The notes: generated by a model from the letters alone, not told the origin. Numbered from the stretch's first letter, positions 109-17,866 are shown. The stretch is DNA of 17,866 nucleotides from Promethearchaeota archaeon (GCA_048939465.1 JBHLPL010000034.1:1-17866), one strand, 5' to 3'. Numbers and translations are program-made.

Positions 109-1392
109 GTGGCGAGAAAAGCGATTAGGGAGTATGACGCAAAGAGATTGCTGGCACAATACCTGCCAGAATATGCAAAAGGTAAGTTCTCTTACCCGGG
201 AAAGACTGTCTCTGTTGATGGTAAAACAAACATGGAAAACCTCGTCTCCAAAAATCCTTGGTTAAGAACCGAGAAGCTAGTGGTAAAAGTAGATCAATTG
301 GTAGGAAAAAGGCTGAAGAATAACTTAGTTTTACTTAACACTAATCTCGATGAGGCAACTAGATTCATTCGAGAGAAAATGAACAGCTCAGTGACTGTAG
401 GTAATGTAGAAGGGGTCCTTACTCATTTCTTAATTGAACCGTTCGTCCTACATGAAAGGGAGTATTTTGCGGCCATAAGATCAGTACGCGAGGGAGATAT
501 AATAGACTTCTCAACCGAGGGCGGAATAGACATTGAAGAAAAATGGGAAAGCGTCGTTTCTATTAAGATTCCAACACTCGAATCTGTTGAGAATGTCGAT
601 ATTTCAGGGAAGCTTCCGTCAGAACTATCAGACGAAGAGAGGGGGTTGTTTGGCGATTTTCTGAAAGCACTTTACAGGCTTTACAGCGATCTTGGTTTTG
701 TATATCTAGAGATAAATCCCCTTGTCGTAAGCGATAGTACAATCATTCCGCTCGATCTCAAAGCAAGACTGGACGATGCCGCAATTTTTGAAATGGGTGC
801 AAAATGGGGGGATATAGAGTTTCCGGCTCCTTTCGGAAGGGCTCAGACTATCGAGGAGAAGCATGTCAATGATCTGGATGAAACAACTGGAGCTTCACTG
901 AAACTCACAATTCTTAACCCTAAAGGACGCATATGGCTGTTGGTTGCAGGCGGGGGGGCAAGCGTTGTATATACGGATACTGTTACAGATTTTGGCTTCT
1001 CAAATGAACTGGCAAACTATGGAGAATATAGTGGAAACCCTGATGAAGAACACACATACCTCTACGCCAAAACAATCATCGATCTGATGACGAGAGAGAA
1101 AGATCCAGAAGGAAGAGACAAAATACTTCTAATTGGTGGGGGAATTGCAAACTTCACTGACGTCGCTCAGACTTTTAAGGGAATCATAAGAGCCTTGAAA
1201 GAGGCCAAAAAGAAACTGCAGGCTACGGGAGTTCAGATTTATGTTCGACGCGGTGGTCCCAACTATGAGGAAGGGCTGAGACTCATGAGGGAGCTGGGGA
1301 AAGGATTAAACGTCCCCATCCAGGTCTACGGACCTGAAACTCATATGACCAAAATAGTCTCCCTAGCACTCAAAGAACAGAATCGTGGGTGA
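109..1392 (+). CDS. aclB: ATP citrate lyase beta subunit (ATP-grasp plus citrate-binding domain)
   Basis: N-terminal MARKAIREYDAKRLL and motifs LEINP, DLKARLDDAA, VAGGGASVVY, ANYGEYSG, GGGIANFT, VRRGGPNY are typical of ACL-A/AclB. GTG start with SD. Confidence 0.93.
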   Translation: MARKAIREYDAKRLLAQYLPEYAKGKFSYPGKTVSVDGKTNMENLVSKNPWLRTEKLVVKVDQLVGKRLKNNLVLLNTNLDEATRFIREKMNSSVTVGNVEGVLTHFLIEPFVLHEREYFAAIRSVREGDIIDFSTEGGIDIEEKWESVVSIKIPTLESVENVDISGKLPSELSDEERGLFGDFLKALYRLYSDLGFVYLEINPLVVSDSTIIPLDLKARLDDAAIFEMGAKWGDIEFPAPFGRAQTIEEKHVNDLDETTGASLKLTILNPKGRIWLLVAGGGASVVYTDTVTDFGFSNELANYGEYSGNPDEEHTYLYAKTIIDLMTREKDPEGRDKILLIGGGIANFTDVAQTFKGIIRALKEAKKKLQATGVQIYVRRGGPNYEEGLRLMRELGKGLNVPIQVYGPETHMTKIVSLALKEQNRG

Positions 1393-1398
1393 AGGGCA

Positions 1399-3255
1399 AT
1401 GAAGAAGACAGACTACACTCTGTTTGATAAGAAAACCCAAGCATTTATCTACAGCCTCCAAGCTAATGCAATTCAACGCATGCTGGATTTTGACTATATC
1501 TGCAAAAGAGAGACGCCCAGTGTTGCTGCAGTTGTCGATCCTTTCAGACCGGGGCTGCAGAAGGTATTTTGGGGAAGCAAAGAGATCCTGATACCAGTCT
1601 ATGCTACCATAAAAGAGGCCGTAAGGAACCATCCAGACGTTGATGTAATGATCAATTTTGCGTCTTTTAGGTCAGCATATCCTACAACCTATGAGGCACT
1701 AAACGAGAATACTATCAGAGTCATTGTAATCATTGCCGAGGGCATTCCTGAGGCAAAAACAAAGAAGCTGATCGCCATAGCAAAGAAGAACAATAAGATC
1801 ATTATCGGACCATCAACAGTTGGAGGGTTGGTTGCCGGAGGATTCAGGATCGGCAACACCGCAGGAGCTATTGGAAATATCGTTGCTGCTAAATTATATA
1901 GGCCGGGTTCAGTAGGCGTTGTTTCAAAGTCGGGTGGGCTTCTAAACGAGATTTTCAACATGGTTGCATTAAACTCAAATGGGGTTTTTGAAGGAGTGGC
2001 AATAGGTGGAGACAGATATCCCGGCTCCACACTCCTCGACCATATAACAAGATATGAAGCAAACCCTAAAATAAAAATGATAGTTGCTCTCGGCGAGGTC
2101 GGGGGTACAGACGAATACCAAATAGTGGAGGCGCTGAAGCATGGAAAGATTACCAAACAACTTGTCATGTGGGTAATCGGGACGGCCGCAACAGTTTTTC
2201 CAACTGGAGTTCAATTTGGACATGCGGGTGCAATGGCTGAAAGCAGTCTAGAAAATGCTGACGTAAAAAACCGGGCTTTAAGAGAAGCAGGCGCAATCGT
2301 TCCAGATTCATTTGACGACTTCGGAGAGAAAATCCATCAGGTGTACGAAGGGCTGAAGGCAAAAGGTGAGATTCCTGAAATAGAAGAATTTGATGTTCCT
2401 CAGATTCCGATGCCTTATCAAGTAGCCTTATCGAAAGGCATCATAAGAAAACCTGCGAACTTCGTTACCACAATATCGGATGATCGAGGAGAAGAACCCA
2501 CGTACGCAGGAATACCGATAAGCGAGATCATTGAAGAGGACTATTCCATCGGAGATATAATAGGCTTGCTTTGGTTTAGAAAGAAGTTGCCGAAGTTTGC
2601 AACAGGATTCATCGAGATGGTACTGAAAATTGTTGCAGATCATGGACCAGCTGTATCAGGGGCACATAACGCCATTGTTGCTGCTAGAGCCGGCAAAGAC
2701 CTTATCTCTGCACTCTGCAGCGGTCTATTAACAATCGGTCCGCGATTTGGCGGAGCGATCGATGGCGCTGCACGTTATTTCAGTCAAGCGAAGGATTCGG
2801 GTATGAAACCTGCAGACTTCGTAGATGATATGAAGGCTAAAGGAATTTACATTCCAGGAATCGGTCACAGGATAAAAAGCGTGGAGAATCCTGACAGGCG
2901 TGTGGAATTGCTTAAAGATTTTGCGCGCAGAAATTTCCCGAAAACTGACTATCTAGATTATGCTCTTGAAGTCGAGAAGATAACGACCCAAAAAAGAAAC
3001 ACATTAATCCTAAATGTTGACGGGTGCGTGGGCATTCTATTCTTGGATATGCTAAAGGGGACGACTATGTTCACAGATGATGAGATAAGAGAAATGATTG
3101 AGATTGGATACCTCAACACCATGTTTGTGTTAGGAAGAAGCATTGGGATTATTGGGCATATTCTCGATCAAAAACGTCTCAAGGCTGGCTTGTACAGACA
3201 TCCGTGGGATGACATACTCTATTATGTGGAGAGAGGAGAGACTGGTGAGAAGTAA
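1399..3255 (+). CDS. aclA: ATP citrate lyase alpha subunit (CoA-binding/ligase domain with phospho-His, plus C-terminal citryl-CoA lyase module)
   Basis: NFASFRSA, IIGPSTVGG, GDRYPGS, phospho-His motif QFGHAGA, DHGPAVSGAHN, IGPRFGGA, PGIGHRIKS, LNVDG, LYRHPWDDI. Starts 6 nt after aclB. Confidence 0.93.
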   Translation: MKKTDYTLFDKKTQAFIYSLQANAIQRMLDFDYICKRETPSVAAVVDPFRPGLQKVFWGSKEILIPVYATIKEAVRNHPDVDVMINFASFRSAYPTTYEALNENTIRVIVIIAEGIPEAKTKKLIAIAKKNNKIIIGPSTVGGLVAGGFRIGNTAGAIGNIVAAKLYRPGSVGVVSKSGGLLNEIFNMVALNSNGVFEGVAIGGDRYPGSTLLDHITRYEANPKIKMIVALGEVGGTDEYQIVEALKHGKITKQLVMWVIGTAATVFPTGVQFGHAGAMAESSLENADVKNRALREAGAIVPDSFDDFGEKIHQVYEGLKAKGEIPEIEEFDVPQIPMPYQVALSKGIIRKPANFVTTISDDRGEEPTYAGIPISEIIEEDYSIGDIIGLLWFRKKLPKFATGFIEMVLKIVADHGPAVSGAHNAIVAARAGKDLISALCSGLLTIGPRFGGAIDGAARYFSQAKDSGMKPADFVDDMKAKGIYIPGIGHRIKSVENPDRRVELLKDFARRNFPKTDYLDYALEVEKITTQKRNTLILNVDGCVGILFLDMLKGTTMFTDDEIREMIEIGYLNTMFVLGRSIGIIGHILDQKRLKAGLYRHPWDDILYYVERGETGEK

Positions 3256-3549: not shown

Positions 3550-4788
3550 ATGAATAAGAAATTGCAGCACCTAGAATCTCCGACTGAGGGAGAATGTATC
3601 AGAGTCATTGATAGCAAACTGCAGGTACCGGCCAATCCCATCATTTCGTTTATTGAGGGAGATGGCGTAGGTCCGGATATCACCAAGGCTATGCTGCCGG
3701 TCGTGAATGCTGCGGTCGAAAAAGCATATTACGGACGCAGAGAAATATCTTGGTACGAGATATTTGCAGGCCAGAAAGCCAAAGCCCTGTACGGGGAGTA
3801 TCTTCCTGAAGAAACTCTCGATGCAATTCGGAAATATGTTATAGCAATAAAGGGACCCCTAACAACGCCAGTCGGAGGAGGATATAGGAGCCTTAACGTA
3901 ACTATCAGACAGAAACTCGATTTATACGCGTGTGTGAGACCAGTAAGAGGCATAAGGGGAGTACCTGCACCAATTAAGAGACCAGAGCTAGTAGACATGG
4001 TAGTTTTTCGGGAAAATATTGAAGATGTCTACGCAGGTATTGAATGGGCATCAAATACACCTGAAAGTCGCAAGTTTATCGACTTCCTTAGGAATGAGAT
4101 GGGGGTGTCAATTCCCTTAGATTCAGGAATTGGAGTCAAGCCAATCAGTAAGACCAGAACCTACAATATTGTACGGAAATCAATCAATTATGCAATCGAA
4201 AATAACAGGAAAAGCGTTACGATAATGCACAAAGGCAATATTATGAAGTTCACCGAGGGAGCCTTTAGAGAGTGGGGATACGAAGTTGCAAATAACGAGT
4301 TTGGAGATTATATAGTAACAGAGGAGCAACTGAGGAGCGGTGAATTGCCTGAGGGCAAAGTTGTTATTAAAGATAGGATTGCAGATGCGATGTTTCAGCA
4401 GGTACTACTCAGGCCTAAAGAATACGATGTCATAGTTACGTCAAATCTAAACGGTGATTATATATCGGACGCGTTGGCTGCCCAAGTCGGTGGATTGGGA
4501 ATGGCACCTGGAGGAAACATCGGCGACTACCTTGCTGTTTTTGAGGCTACACATGGGACTGCACCAAAATACGCAGGACTAGACAAAGTGAATCCAGGAT
4601 CACTGATTCTCTCGGCAGTTATGATGCTCCGTTATATCGGATGGAATGAGGCAGGGGATCTAATCGAGAAAGCTCTTGAGAAAACCATACTGCAAAAGAG
4701 GGTAACCTACGATCTTGAACGGCAAATGGAGAATGCAACGCTTCTGAAGACATCAGAATTCGCCAAAGCTGTCGTTGAAAATCTATAA
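3550..4788 (+). CDS. icd: Isocitrate dehydrogenase, NADP-dependent, dimeric prokaryotic type
   Basis: [70 protein letters not shown] and VTYDLER carry the Lys/Tyr/Tyr/Arg residues associated with NADP specificity. SD GAGGTG at 3538-3543. Confidence 0.95.
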
Positions 4789-9543: not shown

Positions 9544-10395
9544 TCAATGAGTGGGACTCTTCCTCAATACCTTTTCGGCTTCATGAAAGATTTTTTCAAT
9601 CTTGCTGTTTGAAAGCCCTGTTAATTGCGCTAACTCTTCCGTATCTTGTTCTAATAGATCACATAGAAACATTATCCCTAAATCTGAGAGGTGCCTTATA
9701 ACGGCCTTATCTATCGTTCTCAAAACCGTTACTGGATATAGGTTTTTCCGCTCGATTATGTCTCTGATACTGCCGTTATTTGGATAATTCCAGCAAATCA
9801 ACTTAATTCCCCGACATTTAGCGTACTTTTTCACGGCTTGCGAGGCTTTCGCGTTGCTTACAAACCAAACATTGTCAAGCTGCCTGCCTTTGCCCTTTTC
9901 CCAACCCTCCATCAGATCAAGAAAACGGGCATAGGTGAATAACATCTCTTTTAGTTCTATATGCTGCCCTTTCGTATTCCGATATTTGCATTCTATCATT
10001 GAGTGAATCTCTTCACCTTCTGAAGCTTTAACTGCAACCACATCAATCTCATGCTCCACGCATAGGCCTCTTACATTTTGTCGTAATTCGATCTTATAGT
10101 CGTATTTTTTGAGAAGCTCTCCAATGAAGGTTTCAAAAGGGTATCCGGTAGGTCCGAGACGCATAATGGCCTGTTTTAGACCATAACGACAAGCAGAATA
10201 GTGATCTCTCTTAGCCATTAGTTTGCAAGCCATATCCATAATTTTGTCTGTAGTTATCCCATCGTACATCTTCTTGGAGATGCTGTCCACTATTTCATCT
10301 GCCAGTCTCTTGGAGGCTCCTGCGCGCAACAGAGTTCTACGGATCTTGTTAGGTTGAAACTCTTCCATTTTCCCTGAGGCTTTTCTAACCAACAT
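9544..10395 (-). CDS. ATP-cone domain fused to Mrr-like PD-(D/E)XK endonuclease domain, with C-terminal HhH-like helix pair
   Basis: N-terminal LVRKASGKMEEFQPNKIRRTL (ATP-cone); PFETFIGELL...HEIDVVA...IECKY (nuclease motifs). ATG at 10395 preceded by GAGGA is preferred over the ORF-track start at 10440. Confidence 0.78.
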   Translation of the reverse strand: MLVRKASGKMEEFQPNKIRRTLLRAGASKRLADEIVDSISKKMYDGITTDKIMDMACKLMAKRDHYSACRYGLKQAIMRLGPTGYPFETFIGELLKKYDYKIELRQNVRGLCVEHEIDVVAVKASEGEEIHSMIECKYRNTKGQHIELKEMLFTYARFLDLMEGWEKGKGRQLDNVWFVSNAKASQAVKKYAKCRGIKLICWNYPNNGSIRDIIERKNLYPVTVLRTIDKAVIRHLSDLGIMFLCDLLEQDTEELAQLTGLSNSKIEKIFHEAEKVLRKSPTH

Positions 10396-10525
10396 CTTGA
10401 TTCCTCGAAAGCTAGAATCTTTTGGATTCTGTCGGCACAAAGGAGAGTAGCCTGTATAATTCTTATTATTGCCCCTAAAAAAGTCTTTACAGTAAGAGTC
10501 TTAGAGAATTTTACTAATTAGAAAA

Positions 10526-10711
10526 TGGTCCCGCCGACCGGATTTGAACCGGTGACCCTTACTGAAGCATCACCAATTTCAGTAATACTTTCTCGGTGTC
10601 TGCTGTCTGAGCACAGGTTGAGATACACAAGACAGGACGTCAAGCGCTACAGCCGAGTGCTCTGCGACTAAGCTTTCGCCGCCGTAAGCTTCTGCTTATG
10701 GCTACGGCGGG
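10526..10711 (-). tRNA. tRNA-Tyr(GTA) with three introns: 8/9 (10703-10675, 29 nt), 37/38 (10646-10598, 49 nt), about 43/44 (10591-10559, 33 nt)
   Basis: Acceptor stem CCCGCCG/CGGCGGG with C1:G72 and A73 (archaeal Tyr identity); encoded CCA; T arm ACCGG-TTCAAAT-CCGGT; anticodon stem CTCGG/CCGAG with loop CTGTAGA after intron removal. Spliced length 75 nt. BHB-type motifs at all three inserts. Confidence 0.88.
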
Positions 10712-10744
10712 TTGGCGGAACCATAGTTAATTGGTCAAGATTTT

Positions 10745-10756
10745 TTATTTAAACTT
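10745..10756 (-). promoter_or_regulatory. TATA box for tRNA-Tyr
   Basis: Minus strand AAGTTTAAATAA; the TATA box ends about 35 nt upstream of C1. Confidence 0.7.
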
Positions 10757-10790
10757 GTTGCTTCTGACAAGTGAAGAGTACCGTAGAAGA

Positions 10791-10802
10791 AAGTTTAAAT
10801 AA
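10791..10802 (+). promoter_or_regulatory. BRE/TATA for tRNA-Asp
   Basis: AGAAGAAAG-TTTAAATA about 28 nt upstream of G1 at 10830. Confidence 0.75.
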
Positions 10803-10829
10803 GATTTGCTATAGCTAATTCTTAACGAT

Positions 10830-10933
10830 GCCCGGGTGGTGTAGTCCGGTCTATCATCTGGGACTGTCAACATCATAAGTCCAGACAAGGCAGAGCTCCC
10901 AGGACTCGGGTTCAAATCCCGGCCCGGGCGCCA
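10830..10933 (+). tRNA. tRNA-Asp(GTC) with canonical 37/38 intron (10870-10895, 26 nt)
   Basis: GCCCGGG/CCCGGGC acceptor stem, G73, encoded CCA; anticodon stem TGGGA/TCCCA with loop CTGTCAC after splicing; BHB central helix CTGT/GCAG with bulges CA|A and AG|C. Confidence 0.93.
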
Positions 10934-10994
10934 CAATTATCAAAGAATTCTCCAGAAGGACATTGTGAAAAATCTAGTGCCTGAAGCAGCTTTA

Positions 10995-11008
10995 CGATAA
11001 ATTTATAA
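10995..11008 (+). promoter_or_regulatory. Putative BRE/TATA for rpoB
   Basis: CGATAAA-TTTATAA about 145 nt upstream of the ATG; SD GAGGTGGAG at 11142-11150. Confidence 0.5.
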
Positions 11009-11152
11009 GGAATCGGTTCTTCCATTATGCCAACCTTGGCGCTTTTTACATAACTGCTTGTAACTGGAGGCACCCTAAGAAGTTGGCCAGTCCAATAAAT
11101 CGCCTAGAAATGTCGCATGTTAGAAAAGCAGACGACCGTCTGAGGTGGAGCT

Positions 11153-14100
11153 ATGGCTAGGGCAATTGATAGATGGGAATTGATGACAACTTTCTTTGAA
11201 GAAAAAGGATTAGTAAGACAGCATCTTGATTCGTATAACTCCTTCATTAAAGAAGGACTCCAGCAGATTGTAGAAGAAGTTGGTAGAATTGAGCCAGATA
11301 TTGAAGGATTTTGTGTCGAATTTGGCAAGATTAGAGTAGAGGAGCCAAATGTTACCGAGGCCGATGGTTCAGTTAAGAAAGTAAGCCCAAGTGAGGCGCG
11401 TATCCGCAATCTGACATACTCGGCACCGATATACTTGGAAATGACTCCGGTACTCCAAGATTCAGAGACGGGTATTGAAGAACGTGGAGAAACAATCGAC
11501 ATCTACATCGGCAGAATACCTATTATGCTTAAATCGGAAAGATGCGGACTCGCTCACTTAAGTCCGGAGAATCTTGTAAAGGTTAACGAAGACCCGAGGG
11601 ATCCGGGCGGCTATTTCATAGTCAACGGATCAGAACGAGTACTGGTTACTCAAGAGGATCTGGCGCCCAACAGAATCTTAACTGAAGAAGCAGGAAGCAG
11701 TAGTTCCGCAACTCACGTAGCAAAGGTATTCTCGACAGCTCGCGGCTTCAGGGCTCCTGTAACACTGGAAAGAACCAAAGACAATGAATTAAGGGTTTCC
11801 TTCCCGTCGATACCGGGAAAAATCCCCTTGATAATTCTTGTGCGGGCCTTAGGACTTATCACAGACAAGGAGGTCATCGAGACTTTCTCTGAAGATTTTG
11901 AGATTCGGCGTGAGCTCATCCCTACCCTTGAGGCAGCGGCACCCATATACGTCCCTAAGGATCGAGAGGAAACAAGGAGAAATGCCCTAGACTATATCGG
12001 CAGAAGGGTTGCCATCGGTCAAACCATCGAATATCGGTTAAGACGCGCAGAACAGGTTTTAGATCGCTATCTTCTTCCCCACATAGGTATGAGGCAAGAA
12101 GATCGAATTAGGAAGGCATATTATCTTACGCAAATGGCTCAAAGGCTTATTGAACTAATTTTGGGAAAAAGAGCCAAGGACGATAAAGATCATTATTCAA
12201 ATAAAAGACTGAAGCTCGCAGGTGAGCTTCTAACAAGTCTGTTTCGGGTTGCATTTTTGAATCTTGTTAGAGACGTCAAATATCAGCTTGAACGAACTGC
12301 TGTTAGAGGTCGCAAGCCCAACATTCGTACGGCTGTACGAGCGGATGTGATAACAGAACGACTTAAACATGCATTAGCTACAGGGAACTGGGTCGGTGGA
12401 AAAGCAGGCGTAAGTCAGCTACTTGACAGAACAAACTATATATCAACGTTGAGCCATCTGAGAAGAATTGTTTCTCCTCTTAGCAGAAGTCAGCCTCATT
12501 TCGAGGCACGTGACCTTCATCCCACGCACTGGGGCCGGATATGTGTTGCTCCTTCAACCTTGGTAACGATGGCAGATAAGGTGACTCAAACTCCAATATC
12601 TGATTTAGAACAGAACTACTCGGAAAAGACGGTTGCAACGGTGAATCTGGCAGACTTCCGGATAGTTCCGTCAACACTACACGATTATCAGAAATTCTCA
12701 CCAATTAAGCTAAATAAGAGAGTTTACAGGATAACAACAATTAGCGGAAGAACCATTGAGGCAACAGCAGATCATCCATTCTTCACACTTAGAGGATGGG
12801 TTTCTGGAAAAGATCTTAATGTTAATGATAAAGTCTTGGTATTCCCAGGCATCGAGCCGATCGAGATTGAACCCATATTGGAGTCTCAGGGTGAAATCCT
12901 ATCGGAAAAGGAATTCCTTGAAGGTGAGTGGATAACCAAGCTAACAAGCTCGGAGAGAAAGCGATTAGCAGGATACGCTGAAGAATTAAAAGAAAAGGGG
13001 CTTCTGCCGCTCAAAAATACCAACCCCAAGTTGCCCATTGTCGCAAGATTGTTCGGATATATCATTACAGACGGCTCTGTTGGCAAGACAGTCGAGTTCT
13101 ACTGTGGCTGTAGAGAGGATGTTAAAGACATCCAAACAGATCTCCTAGAGCTGGGCTTCAAACCCACAAGCATTAGCACAAAAATCGGGACCTTTCCGGT
13201 TGATGGAGAAGAATTGACTTATACTACAGAAAGAACCACAAAGGGAGGTTCTTTCCTATCCCTCATGCTGGCCTTGGGCTGTCCGAGAGGGAAAAGAGTG
13301 TCACAGCCGTCGGTTTTTCCAAAATGGGTTCCTAATTCAAGCCTTCTAGTTCAGCGAGAGTTCCTTGCGGGCTATCTTGGCGGTGATGGTTCAGCACCTC
13401 GATTCTACAGAAGATCTGAAGAGGATAGAAAAGATAGCTATAAGATCAAGCTGGATAGAATCGCAGGTCACAAGGAGAAAGAGTTCGCATCAACCTTGAG
13501 AGAATTCTTTGAAAAGATGCGGAATTCGTTTAGAAATTTCAACATTAAAACACTTGGGATCGGATCTAAATCCTTAGACGACGAGAAGATTCAGGTTGGT
13601 CTTCAGTTTTCCCAAGAGCATTCTAACATTGTGAAAATCGCTAAGTTGATCGGATTCAGGTACTGTAAAGAAAAGCAAAGCAAAGCGGCGTTGGTTCAAG
13701 AGTATTTGAACTACAAAGAATGGGAGATTTCAATTAGGTCGAAATATGTCCAAGAAGCAATCACGCTATTCAAGAATGGGGTGACAAAACGAGAGATTGC
13801 TAAGCATCTCTCACTAAAGTTCAACAGAAACATCACCCACAGAGCTATTGATGGACTTTTGCTGCGAATTGATGAGCGTAAGAAGCTTGTAATGCCTAAA
13901 TCTTCCATGAATATCAACGACTTCCTCCTAGAAACTTGTGCAGACTTCGATAATGGATTCTTATATTTGCCTATCGATAGAATCGAGGAATCGCGCCTGG
14001 AAGATGTAAGGGATTTCACCACCGTTTCAAAGAATCATAACTTCATTGCAAACGGATTCTTAACACACAATTGTCCCAATGAGACCCCTGAGGGGCCCAA

Positions 14101-17100
14101 CTGTGTTGTGCCCAACACCAGGGTTACCATCTCCGGAGGTAGTACGTATCAAATCGGAGACTTAGAAAAGGATGGAAAGTGGCGGCGCATTAGGTTGATG
14201 TCTTCAACTTGGAATGTGCCAAATAATCATCAAACAGACGCTATCTATCCAACAGTGGCGAGATTCATAAAAAACAAGGCTAACGGACGCCCATTTAAGC
14301 TCTATAACATCAAGACAGATACTGGTCGCACAATATCAGCGACAGCAGACCACCCATTCTATACCGACCAGGGTCGACTGGAAGCTAAGAGACTTACACA
14401 TGGAACGAAAGCTGCCGTATTGCCTGCAGCGCTTCAGCGACCTGACTGGGGGTCGGAGGTCGGTGGTAATGATATTATCATAAGCGAAAAAGGAATTATT
14501 GAGGCTTGCCCACCGCACTCCAAAGTCCAGCTTCACTGTAACTTCCTGAAGAAGCTGGGATTGATCCCCCTCAGGAGAAGCGATCCACGTTATAGAATTC
14601 TGCTTCGTCTTTTGGCCTTCCTTTATGGTGATGGGCACTTATCTTTTAGGATCCGTGAGGGCAGGTCTGGTAAGCCCAAATCGGATGTTTCAGTTCATTT
14701 TGTCGGTCAAGTAGAAGACCTGAAAGATATTCAGACTGATATTGCCATGCTTGGCTTCCGAAGTTCCAAGATATACACTTCAAAGGCCGAATCTGTCCTT
14801 CCAGACAGAATAATTAAAGGCAAGACTTCCAAGATTGTATGTTACCAAAAACCCTTCTGGGTCCTTATGAAGGGGCTTGGTGCTCCTGTTGGAGATAAGC
14901 AAAAGCAAGATTTCTCCGTCCCCGAATGGCTTTTTAATGCATCCGGAGCGGAGATTAGAGAGTTTTTGGCTGCGTTTTTTGGATGTGAAATGCTTAAGCC
15001 GCTAGTTGACAAGAGAACAGGAAAGGTCTTTGTCCCTCCTTCCATCAAGATGTCAAAGGAAATCTCCATGATTGAGTCACTCCGAGAATTCTTTATGGAC
15101 ATAAAGAGACTGGCCGAACGTTTTGATATCCAGTTTCCTGAAAAAGTTATCACTCCTAAAGAAAAATTCGTACGTAAGGATGGGACAGTTACGCAAAAAC
15201 TTCAATTGAACTTCTCGGGCTCAGTTGAAAACCTAGCCAAGCTATGGGGAAAGATTGGCTATACCTATAACAGAGAACGGGAATGTCTCGCTCAACGTGC
15301 TTATGGCTATCTACATAGGCATTTGATGGCTCGTTCTAAACGACAAGAAGCTGCAAGGTATGTTATGGGAAGAAGACGGGTGCTAGATGGAACTCCAACT
15401 GAAAAAGCGAGAATCATTATGAAGGAACTTAAAGATCTAGGACTACTTCAATTTGTTCGTCTTCACGATATCGTCAACTGGATAAAGACTCGTATAGAGC
15501 CCTCCTCAGCTCGTGTATCAGAGATAGATTCTCCATCATTTGATGAATGGGTAGCTCAAGCTGCGATGAATCTAGAAGGTGATGCTGGTCTAATCTGGGA
15601 GACTGTAGAAACTGTTAATATTAAGATTACCGAACCCTCTCAGATTGTTGAAGATGTGACCATGGCGGACAGAAATCATAACTTCTTTGTCAACGGTTTT
15701 CTAACCGGAAACTGTGGTCTCGTCAAGAATCTTGCCCTGATGGCCTACATCTCCGTCGGGACGGATGAGGGGGTTGTCGAAAATGTCCTGTTAAATCTCG
15801 GGGTTTATCCTGCAGAGGAGGTTATTAAAGACAAAACGAAGAGAGGAGCTCAAGTATTTCTGAACGGGAGGCTTGTCGGCGTTCATCCTAAGGCAAAGGA
15901 ACTCGTCACAAAATTGAGAGCGATACGTAGAAAGGGGGAAATTGACGACGAGGTCAACGCAGCATATGACGCTGAAACCAACGAAGTTCAGATCAACTGT
16001 GACTCGGGAAGAGCCAGAAGACCTCTGATAATCGTAGAGGATGGCGTGCCTAAAATCAAGCCAGAGCAAATAGAGCAGTTGAGAAATAGGGAGATAGTGT
16101 TCAGTGACCTAGTGGCAAAAGGAATCGTGGAATATCTAGATTCAGAAGAGGAAGAGAACTCGTTTATTGCGCTTGACCCCAAGGATTTGACCCCTGAGCA
16201 CACACATCTCGAAATAGCGCCTTCCGCGATACTTGGCATAACAGCATCAACGACACCCTTCCCTGAATATAACCAGTCTCCCCGTAATGTTTACCAAGCA
16301 GGAATGAGCAAGCAAGCCCTCGGAATCTATGCCACGAACTATCGACACAGAGTCGATACAAGAAGCCATCTCCTTCATTATCCTCAAAGACCGATTGTAG
16401 AGACTGAGGCAATGGACGCTGTAGGTTTTGCCAGCAGACCAGCTGGCCAGAATCTGATTGTGGCTGTCCTCAGCTTCCAAGGATACAACCTGGAAGATGC
16501 TCTAGTTATTAACAAGGCATCAATAGAACGAGGCGTTGGGAGAGGAACCTTTTTCAGATCATACGAGGCAGAAGAAAGGAAGTACCCTGGGGGTCAGGAG
16601 GATAGATTCGAAATTCCGGAAAAAAGTGTTCGTGGGTATCGTATAGCCGAAGCCTATCGCCACCTGTCTGAGGATGGTATCATTGAGCCCGAAATGGAAG
16701 TAACAGGTGGTGATGTGTTGATAGGACGATCAAGCCCTCCGAGGTTTCTTGAAGAGTATTCCGAATTTGAAGCCATCTCGCCGATAAGGCGCGAGACCTC
16801 GATAAACATGAGACATGGCGAAAGGGGTGTGGTCGATACTGTTATACTTTCTGAAACGATGGACGGGAGTAAGTTAATCAAGATTAAAGTTAGGGATCAA
16901 CGGATACCTGAACTCGGAGACAAGTTTGCGTCCAGACATGGCCAAAAAGGAGTTATTGGTTTAATAGTTCCACAGGAAGATATGCCTTTTACAGGAGAGG
17001 GGATAGTACCAGATCTCATAGTAAACCCGCACGCAATACCGTCCCGTATGACGGTTGGACAGATAATGGAGGGGTTGGCAGGAAAGGTTGGTGCCCTCAG

Positions 17101-17632
17101 AGGAGATGTAGAAGGAATTAACGGCAACGCGTTTAGCGGGGAAAAAGGAGAAGTCCTTTTTAAGATGCTCAAAGAATTGGGCTTTAAGCCCACTGGACGC
17201 GAAGTAATGTACGATGGAATGACTGGCAGAAAATACATCGTAGACGTTTTTATGGCTGTCGTATACTACCAGAAACTGCACCACATGGTTGCAGATAAGA
17301 TGCACGCCCGTGCTCGCGGTCCTGTACAGATATTGACCAGACAACCGACGGAGGGTAGAGCAAGAGAAGGTGGACTACGCTTCGGTGAAATGGAACGGGA
17401 CTGTCTAATAGGGCACGGTGCAGCATTGGTCTTGAAAGAACGGTTACTTGATGAATCGGATAAATACAATATGCTGATCTGCGAAAACTGTGGCACCATT
17501 GGTGTCTATGACAGGAATAAAGACAGATACTATTGTCCTATTTGTGGAGATAAGGGGAAGGTCTCACAGGTTTCAGTTTCTTATGCCTTCAAACTTTTGC
17601 TCCAAGAACTCATGTCTTTCGATTTCCCCTGA
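11153..17632 (+). CDS. rpoB: DNA-directed RNA polymerase subunit B (unsplit) precursor with two inteins; about 1112 aa after splicing; last few codons probably non-native
   Basis: [44 protein letters not shown]|[10 protein letters not shown]|[48 protein letters not shown], zinc site CENC...[17 protein letters not shown]. Confidence 0.97.
12542..14071 (+). mobile_element. Intein 1 in RpoB (510 aa, residues 464-973) with LAGLIDADG homing endonuclease
   Basis: Begins CVAPST; block B ATADHPF; LAGLIDADG-like [11 protein letters not shown] and [12 protein letters not shown]; ends [12 protein letters not shown], +1 residue Cys. Confidence 0.93.
14102..15712 (+). mobile_element. Intein 2 in RpoB (537 aa, residues 984-1520) with LAGLIDADG homing endonuclease
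   Basis: Begins CVVPNT; block B ATADHPF; [11 protein letters not shown] and [10 protein letters not shown]; ends [12 protein letters not shown], +1 residue Cys. Confidence 0.92.
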
Positions 17633-17866
17633 ATGGGGCCATTACTGAATCCCCCCCCTCAGGCGCTATCCCTTCTTTTTTCAAAGTTTTGACTAAAGTC
17701 AGCAAAATTATTTTTATATCCAGAAATAATGAATAATTGTCAACATACCAAACGTCATACTCAAATCGTTGTTGCCAATCAAGAGAATTTCTGCCTTTAA
17801 CTTGGGCCCAACCCGAGATTCCAGGTTTGACTTCATGTCTTCGCGCCTGCTCAGGTGAATACAAAG
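17610..17866 (-). CDS. 3' fragment of a bacterial-type sugar transferase (PglC/EpsL/WcaJ-like phosphoglycosyl transferase), running off the window edge
   Basis: [25 protein letters not shown]...[19 protein letters not shown] is the conserved C-terminus of the Bac_transf family. No true start in the window. Confidence 0.85.

Follow-up and report, generated by a model that had tools for sequence, protein, structure and literature searches.

Two Full-Length Inteins Separated by a Ten-Residue Micro-Extein in the RNA Polymerase Subunit B of an Asgard Archaeon

The rpoB Locus and Its Two Inserts

The stretch of DNA analysed here, 17,866 nucleotides (nt) long and hereafter called the window, comes from a Promethearchaeota archaeon (GCA_048939465.1, JBHLPL010000034.1:1-17866) and carries on its plus strand a single open frame (11153–17632; 2159 codons plus a stop) corresponding to the unsplit precursor of rpoB, the gene for RNA polymerase subunit B (Rpo2). 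Pfam recovers all seven Rpb2 domains (1 to 7) on this frame, along with Intein_splicing. Two inteins interrupt the gene, with only ten codons of host sequence, the micro-extein, between them.

All elements of the gene lie on the plus strand. The N-extein (11153–12541; residues 1–463, ending in HPTHWGRI) is 93–94% identical to RpoB residues 1–465 of two genomes of the same genus, our congeners G001 and G002. Intein 1 (12542–14071; 1530 nt, 510 amino acids, aa) starts with the TGT codon at 12542 and ends with the AAT codon at 14069–14071. It is followed by the 30 nt of the micro-extein (14072–14101), which is both the C-extein of intein 1, with Cys974 at position +1, and the N-extein of intein 2, and then by intein 2 itself (14102–15712; 1611 nt, 537 aa). 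The host frame resumes with TGT GGT CTC GTC (CGLV) in the C-extein (15713–17632; residues 1521–2159 and the stop codon), which is 92% identical to congener G002 and holds Rpb2 domains 4–7. Read from the junctions (a slash marks the insertion point), site S1 (WG../C.ETPEG) lies between WGRI and CPNE, and site S2 (ETPEG../CGLVKN) between EGPN and CGLV.

The whole precursor protein, used as a query, retrieved 40 relatives. Neither congener has an insert in its rpoB, one encoding a protein of 1124 aa and the other ending at a contig edge, and both show the uninterrupted reading ...THWG(R/K)(I/V)..., as do about 25 other relatives. Because excising both inserts from the window gives the sequence read in these genomes, the two inserts are precise and in-frame.

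The window belongs to a fragmented metagenome assembly of 152 contigs, and its last ~247 nt break synteny, two features that would suit an artefact of assembly or binning, i.e., a chimera of two single-intein strains. This explanation is contradicted by contigs from other studies. The stretch is nearly intact in public runs from several of them (mangrove, sediment), with contigs holding 78–97% of the sampled words, and in one run (X3), from a different study, a 4180-nt contig with 11 differences covers 13114–16300, from the interior of intein 1 through the micro-extein and intein 2 into the C-extein. Since this contig bridges both inteins, an assembly chimera is ruled out; double alleles found independently elsewhere (see below) also speak against an artefact, to which we attach practically no credence. 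No RNA dataset for the stretch was found among the listed public runs.

As for the contig end, similarity to the rpoB of a congener is lost some 13 nt short of the stop codon (17620–17866). As we read them, the last ~247 nt encode, on the minus strand, part of a protein similar to bacterial-type sugar transferases; in congener G002, rpoA' directly follows rpoB. The segment 17620–17866 may be a rearrangement or a chimeric contig end, and the final residues of RpoB are possibly non-native.

Position of the Micro-Extein in the RNA Polymerase

To place the ten residues, the uninterrupted RpoB of a congener was aligned to solved structures. They correspond to about 454–463 in Sulfolobus RpoB, while the enclosing stretch aligns to residues 453–617 of yeast Rpb2 and 507–580 of the E. 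coli beta subunit. Via two giant-virus-like homologues, S1 falls after about residue 522 of Rpb2 and S2 after about residue 532, the micro-extein thus spanning ~523–532. We take it to be C559–N568 of the E. coli beta subunit by textbook numbering, overlapping rifampicin cluster II. Judging from these alignments, the micro-extein is the conserved ETPEG stretch of the fork domain, which adjoins the active centre.

The survey by Goodwin, Butler and Poulter 2006 (PMC1635734) argues that inteins at these RNA polymerase positions need to be removed before assembly of the enzyme. A search of our 91%-complete assembly yielded one copy of rpoB; since there is only one, both splices must almost certainly be required for a functional enzyme. 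An earlier note on this DNA, written from the sequence alone, holds up well on these points: its intein coordinates, its lengths of 510 and 537 aa and its ten-residue micro-extein are exact to the base, its alignment of the segment with the D-loop II/rifampicin cluster II region of the E. coli beta subunit agrees with the structure alignments, and its claim that transcription needs both splicing events fits with a single rpoB. It had also called both inserts full-length inteins, and the splice residues and paired LAGLIDADG motifs described below are those of such elements.

Splicing and Endonuclease Domains

The N-terminal nucleophiles are Cys464 (TGT at 12542) in intein 1 and Cys984 (TGT at 14102) in intein 2. 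Both inteins have a block B TADH, of which the T and the H are invariant or nearly so in our alignments A1 and A2. At the C-terminal junctions (...THN/C in intein 1, ...TGN/C in intein 2), the terminal Asn is invariant in 112 relatives, whereas the penultimate residue is His in intein 1 and Gly in intein 2. The same Gly replaces the penultimate His in other Asgard S2 inteins and in several from the DPANN group. The penultimate His helps splicing without being obligatory, and its substitution is tolerated in some inteins (Chen, Benner and Perler 2000, as cited in PMC4031507).

Intein 1 matches the Pfam family Intein_splicing (PF14890) with 69 bits (5.4e-19), as well as LAGLIDADG_3. For intein 2, the PF14890 match (9.5e-08) reaches 32.4 bits, just below the curated cut-off of 35.8, and 40.7 bits together with its neighbours in the genome scan. 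When profile A1 was compared with the PDB by sequence only, the matches were to the DnaB, VMA and RecA mini-inteins, i.e., to splicing domains, and the endonuclease part found no match in that search.

Each intein nonetheless contains two LAGLIDADG motifs, and the catalytic acids are present in all four. In intein 1, motif 1 (13043–13084) ends in ...ITDGS and motif 2 (13355–13399; read from alignment A1) in ...GGDGS, both with an acidic Asp; the G/D/G columns of motif 1 are nearly invariant in A1 and A2. In intein 2, motif 1 (14603–14644) ends in ...YGDGH, with an acidic Asp (D177 and G178 are nearly invariant in A2), while motif 2 (14957–15001; alignment A1) ends in ...FGCEM, with a Glu instead of the usual Asp. 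This Glu is common to all sampled Asgard-clade S2 inteins, and the second catalytic acid of I-DmoI is likewise a Glu (E117, according to the titles of its structure entries).

AlphaFold models are of high quality for intein 2 (pLDDT 96.5, pTM 0.94, from a 112-sequence alignment) and somewhat less so for intein 1 (pLDDT 89.9, pTM 0.87), in which the order of secondary structures is the same. With the model of intein 2, the best Foldseek matches are TliVMA, PI-PfuI, PI-TkoII, PhoVMA and PI-SceI (E down to 5e-15), followed by free-standing LAGLIDADG enzymes, including I-DmoI and I-OnuI; the model agrees with PI-PfuI, PI-SceI, I-DmoI and I-OnuI in its double-core alpha-beta-beta-alpha-beta-beta-alpha fold. 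Both models also have a helical module 3' of the endonuclease core. In intein 1, its helices span residues 376–441, and the model and the alignment of S1 inteins reveal a conserved, helix-turn-helix-like G..x..IA..L pattern (13769–13861), although the module has no Pfam match; from the models, it might provide an extra contact with DNA.

Given that rpoB is single-copy and essential and that the catalytic residues are intact, we infer that both inteins still splice; their endonucleases, with all four acids in place, would likewise still be active.

Distribution of Site Occupancy

With the junction region as query, 17 RpoB proteins with inteins were retrieved from 5.8 billion proteins and sorted by junction. 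Eleven are occupied at S1 only (those named being Heimdall-, Thor- and Helarchaeota) and five at S2 only, including one example from Ranarchaeia; the remaining one, P0002 (2149 aa), is occupied at both sites, and its cluster has a second full-length member on another contig. A profile search of 1.84 billion representatives then yielded 530 relatives at E < 1e-30. These inteins hence form a large family, also present at two further RNA polymerase sites and in RpoA', RtcB, uS12 and a thioredoxin-like CGPC site.

Among the top profile matches were five more representatives with a double S1+S2 allele and a 10-residue micro-extein, so that the metagenome proteins with double alleles are P0002, P0022, P0024, P0027, P0046/P0174 and P0087. 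Two of the five lie on contigs of giant-virus-like content, where orphan genes accompany a protein kinase, Rpb5, a capping-type methyltransferase and an HNH-interrupted polymerase. Scanning named genomes brought one more double allele, in Ca. Iainarchaeum (DPANN; locus L048, contig JACQPB010000035.1), and singly occupied ones in Woese-, Nano- and Micrarchaeota, Bathyarchaeia and Nitrososphaerales. Finally, in 400 Asgard species genomes, of which 367 had a recognisable RpoB, at least eight alleles are S1 only and at least two S2 only, while the window genome is alone in having both; these counts are lower bounds, as mini-inteins and unrelated inteins at S1 or S2 would escape the two intein-specific queries. 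About 97% of the surveyed Asgard genomes have neither intein, such inserts occurring in about 3% of the RpoB genes.

Altogether, S1 and S2 are widely used sites and their pairing is rare but recurrent in other lineages. Empty, S1-only, S2-only and double alleles all exist. The expectation of the earlier note that tandem RpoB inteins this close are unusual has to be relaxed, as two or more other archaeal lineages and no fewer than five giant-virus-like RNA polymerases also have the double allele. Besides the A'/A'' subunits that the note names as hosts of archaeal RNA polymerase inteins, the RpoB of Asgard, DPANN, Bathyarchaeia and Nitrososphaerales houses S1 and S2 inteins. The note would have dropped its claim of novelty had the sites and their co-occurrence been catalogued as common; the sites are indeed common, whereas the co-occurrence is rare, yet not unique. 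In the literature, we found no description of archaeal RpoB inteins at S1 or S2, nor of a micro-extein between two inteins, and none of the double S1+S2 alleles in other public sequences was found described there, although intein sequences at these sites abound in public databases.

Several RNA polymerase genes met during these searches deserve mention on their own account. P0030 (inteins at 797–1297 and 1305–1793) and P0032 (179–658 and 666–1162), two giant-virus-like RNA polymerase subunits 2, each have two full-length inteins around a 7-residue micro-extein (SPRNTYQ and SPRNIYQ, respectively) in a DHNQSPRN..YQ..MGKQA motif. In the S1 intein of P0006, both LAGLIDADG acids are replaced (LTNGT, GGKGV), unlike the intact motifs of the window; its endonuclease is probably dead and the intein itself fixed. 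Moreover, in six DPANN loci (L044, L046, L047, L067, L068 and L072), the intein-bearing frame (~980–1020 aa) stops a few dozen residues past ETPEG/GLVKN, which suggests that RpoB is split there and that the first gene closes right behind the intein sites.

Phylogeny of the Two Inteins

Intein 1 and intein 2 are homologous over their full length (E 2e-41) at 27% identity. Both are nearer to inteins at the same site elsewhere: intein 1 is 40–44% identical to Asgard S1 inteins, and intein 2 59–66% to other Asgard S2 inteins. Three trees (123 rows, 138 rows and a more careful one of 59 rows) give the same picture, in which a branch with 100/100 support divides two major clades. Clade A, with intein 2, groups the archaeal S2 inteins, the DPANN S1 inteins and those of RtcB, uS12 and RpoA', whereas clade B, with intein 1, groups the Asgard S1 inteins and the giant-virus-like S1–S4 inteins. 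Within clade A, intein 2 belongs to an Asgard S2 clade (100/100); within clade B, intein 1 stands beside other Asgard S1 inteins, its exact place being a polytomy.

A local duplication, i.e., one intein copied ectopically to a Cys codon ten residues away so that the two are recent paralogues, would account for a homology that includes the endonuclease region and for a +1 Cys at both sites, and in Anaeramoeba, inteins are reported to have reached new positions of the protein that they already occupied (PMC10710043). The tree contradicts it: with inteins of only 27% identity on opposite sides of the 100/100 split, those of RtcB, uS12 and RpoA' falling on the side of intein 2, and with closer allelic relatives elsewhere (44% for intein 1, 66% for intein 2), the pair is not a local duplication, an origin that we regard as very remote.

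The other double alleles have their own histories. The exteins of P0002 are 88% identical to those of genome G016 and 68% to those of the window, and thus represent another Asgard family. Between P0002 and the window, intein 1 is 36% identical and intein 2 62%, which indicates that the two Asgard doubles were assembled independently. P0002 and P0004 are 79% identical in intein 2 and 69% in their exteins; because the inteins are closer than the exteins, a horizontal spread of intein 2 is indicated. In the double of Iainarchaeum (L048), a DPANN-type S1 intein is combined with an archaeal S2 intein.

That the Asgard S1 inteins, including intein 1, share a major clade with the S1–S4 inteins of giant-virus-like RNA polymerases (and probably with those of eukaryotic RPB2-c-type ones), and not with other archaeal inteins, raises the tentative possibility that this lineage moved between Asgard archaea and the gene pool of giant viruses and eukaryotes at a homologous polymerase site. 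With the same reserve, the 10- and 7-residue micro-exteins may be the shortest natural exteins between two inteins. If so, they would make it possible to see, in a natural setting, how faithfully two homologous inteins splice.

Order of Invasion and Competing Explanations

Another public run, X13, informs on the order in which the sites were filled. One of its contigs (920 nt, depth 14.6, about 91% identity) joins position 12541 to 14072, so that exactly the 1530 nt of intein 1 are absent, and then runs on for 59 nt, crossing the micro-extein and entering intein 2. The run covers intein 2 and the C-extein at about 93% identity and a depth of 10.9, and has pieces of intein 1 at a depth of 2–3.5 only. 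The congeners are about 84% identical to the spliced rpoB of the window, the X13 relative being therefore the closer one. In the same run, another contig (depth 3.7) leads from the N-extein to the micro-extein, and a separate loose end goes from the micro-extein directly to CGLVKN, which points to the presence of an empty allele as well. Since this close relative has intein 2 without intein 1, an occupation of site 2 first is favoured: intein 2 is probably older in the lineage, and intein 1 would have entered later an allele already occupied by intein 2.

At face value, the spacing of the sites could suggest a different course. According to the earlier note, the homing site of each endonuclease probably overlaps the insertion point of the other, so that the inteins would spread in a fixed order or jointly, as a 3.1-kb cassette. 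S1 and S2 are just 30 bp apart, PI-SceI and PI-PfuI recognise about 30 bp, and the helical module after the LAGLIDADG core of both inteins could lengthen the DNA footprint, so that some interference might occur; moreover, if two breaks 30 bp apart were repaired from a donor with both inteins, the pair would be copied at once. However, a typical LAGLIDADG core footprint is ~20–22 bp centred on the site, short of 30 bp, and the core target of either site would survive the filling of the other. The distribution of alleles also argues against constrained homing: all four allelic states exist, doubles in three archaeal lineages combine different intein lineages, and the two Asgard doubles have diverged unequally (36% for intein 1 vs. 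62% for intein 2). Finally, neighbouring inteins co-home inefficiently in Haloferax (PMC10643990). Considering in addition the separate phylogenies and the intein-2-only relative in X13, forced ordered or joint homing is not supported, and we consider it unlikely.

The tandem could also have been retained as a domesticated switch, in which conditional (e.g., redox) splicing gates the assembly of the RNA polymerase. There are Cys1/+1 Cys pairs at both junctions (four cysteines), an intein ending in Gly-Asn is possibly slow, and at least six inteins are found in information-processing genes of the genome; other inteins are documented to splice conditionally or in response to stress (PMC6195587 and PMC5790916). 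Against such a role, both congeners and about 97% of the surveyed Asgard genomes do without either intein, and the endonuclease domains look intact, as in mobile parasites. A switch is accordingly a quite improbable explanation.

The account that we consider likely is an independent invasion of a single essential Asgard rpoB by two different class-1 inteins with nested LAGLIDADG endonucleases, followed by stepwise assembly of the pair. One precursor of 2159 residues would be translated from rpoB; intein 1 would excise through Cys464 and the +1 Cys974, and intein 2 through Cys984 and the +1 Cys1521, the ten residues in between serving as C-extein in one reaction and as N-extein in the other. 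Only the doubly spliced product of 1112 residues would form the fork of the active centre. Intein 2 probably came first and intein 1 probably inserted into an allele already holding it. The pair is neither a local duplication nor an obligate co-homing unit.

Several points weigh against this account. The X13 allele without intein 1 could stem from a precise loss instead of reflecting a later gain. No co-conversion tract was found in the exteins, either when the codons of the spliced rpoB were set against those of both congeners in sliding windows or in the 45-nt flanks of 17 alleles, where the flanks of the window's inteins are closest to those of the congeners; without such a tract, there is no direct footprint of recent homing. 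Because of its Gly-Asn end, intein 2 could splice slowly or conditionally. In addition, splicing and cleavage are deduced from intact motifs and from the essential nature of the gene, the position of intein 1 within clade B is a polytomy, and the Asgard counts, as lower bounds, leave room for further occupied alleles.

Other Inteins and Neighbouring Genes

The window genome (G000) also has inteins in MCM, ribonucleotide reductase, RtcB and DP2, the large subunit of PolD (contigs C111, C78, C31 and C91; L001, L003, L004 and L005), which brings the inteins in its information-processing genes to at least six. In many DPANN and other archaeal genomes, uS12 carries full-length inteins of the same family as intein 1 and intein 2, at QPNSA.RK/CVRVQL (proteins P0045, P0048, P0051, P0054–P0056, P0062 and P0078; loci L050, L051, L063, L066, L076, L081, L084, L089, L100 and L111). 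We know of no report of uS12 as an intein host. In P0113, P0142 and L062, the inteins sit within a thioredoxin-like active site (W/CGPC), where the +1 Cys is the first redox cysteine. RtcB can have two full-length inteins of the family about 25 residues apart (GYGF/CIGGV and GFDIN/CGVR), as in L091, L095 and L103 (Methanocaldococcus sp. 28A and others).

Upstream of rpoB, the window encodes both subunits of ATP-citrate lyase together with isocitrate dehydrogenase (109–3255 and 3550–4788), a grouping consistent with a reductive TCA capacity. On the minus strand, 9544–10440 encodes a 298-aa protein made of an ATP-cone, an Mrr-type restriction endonuclease core and an AF1548-like C-terminal domain. 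In the intergenic region 10400–11200, no tRNA and no Rfam family were found, though some translations looked tRNA-like.

Significance

The ETPEG segment of the fork emerges as a double landing pad that inteins have repeatedly colonised across Archaea and giant viruses, and the window, with its sites 30 bp apart, as an extreme natural case of neighbouring inteins. Two questions follow, for which the pair is a natural test case. Is splicing faithful when only ten residues lie between two homologous inteins, or is the micro-extein skipped? And when homing endonucleases act at such close range, does each favour the spread of the other or impede it, as has been asked for haloarchaeal MCM? In practice, such inserts, carried by about 3% of the surveyed Asgard RpoB, must come out before RpoB serves as a phylogenetic marker. 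The sediment metagenome X13 is of interest for its close relative without intein 1 alongside low-depth pieces of that intein, while the Asgard S1 lineage may provide a link to the polymerase inteins of giant viruses.

Comparison with Known Systems

Among solved intein endonucleases, PI-PfuI (1dq3), TliVMA (7qss), PI-TkoII (2cw7) and PI-SceI (1vde, 1lws) share with the model of intein 2 a HINT domain and a double LAGLIDADG core (E 5e-15 to 2e-08, Foldseek probability 1.0). They differ from it by an identity of 10–16% and a global TM of 0.25–0.28, this low value being due to differences in domain orientation and extra modules; the sequence match to solved inteins is confined to the splicing domain.

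Both insertion sites probably have catalogued eukaryotic counterparts. Goodwin, Butler and Poulter (PMC1635734) list RPB2-c, in the RPB2 of Batrachochytrium dendrobatidis, and RPC2-a, in the RPC2 of Dictyostelium discoideum, two fork-domain sites 10 alignment columns apart (843 and 853), the Dictyostelium intein being followed by a +1 Cys; in their tree, the two inteins reportedly pair as closest relatives, with about 20% identity and weak support. The RPB2-c site is also filled by a mini-intein in CroV (PMC3423634), and polr2b inteins are known from giant viruses (PMC5871332). In the supplementary alignment of PMC1635734, from which the inteins are removed, the stretch has only two Cys, which match S1 and S2. 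By sequence, S1 is thus very probably RPB2-c and S2 very probably RPC2-a. RPB2-c and RPC2-a are occupied by single inteins in different eukaryotic paralogues or viruses, whereas both sites are filled in one archaeal gene in the window.

An essential gene with several inteins at neighbouring sites is already known as a kind, and the distinction here is the 10-codon spacing. The nearest parallel is the MCM-a/MCM-d pair of Haloferax mediterranei, in which the inteins home singly and enter empty alleles together with low efficiency (Turgeman-Grott et al. 2023, PMC10643990); according to that study, the phylogenies give no indication of co-homing, and double alleles would arise via singly occupied ones. 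Like our pair, it consists of two full-length LAGLIDADG inteins at neighbouring sites of an essential archaeal gene, with all allelic states and independent phylogenies. It differs in its host gene, MCM instead of rpoB, and in its spacing, since a double cut at sites 10 codons apart would free a 30-bp fragment; moreover, the RpoB pair is known from sequence alone. The other double S1+S2 alleles, i.e., the P-series metagenome proteins and Iainarchaeum, share the same two sites and the 10-residue micro-extein, but their hosts are another Asgard family, DPANN and giant-virus-like contigs, and they combine other inteins, some of them mini-inteins.

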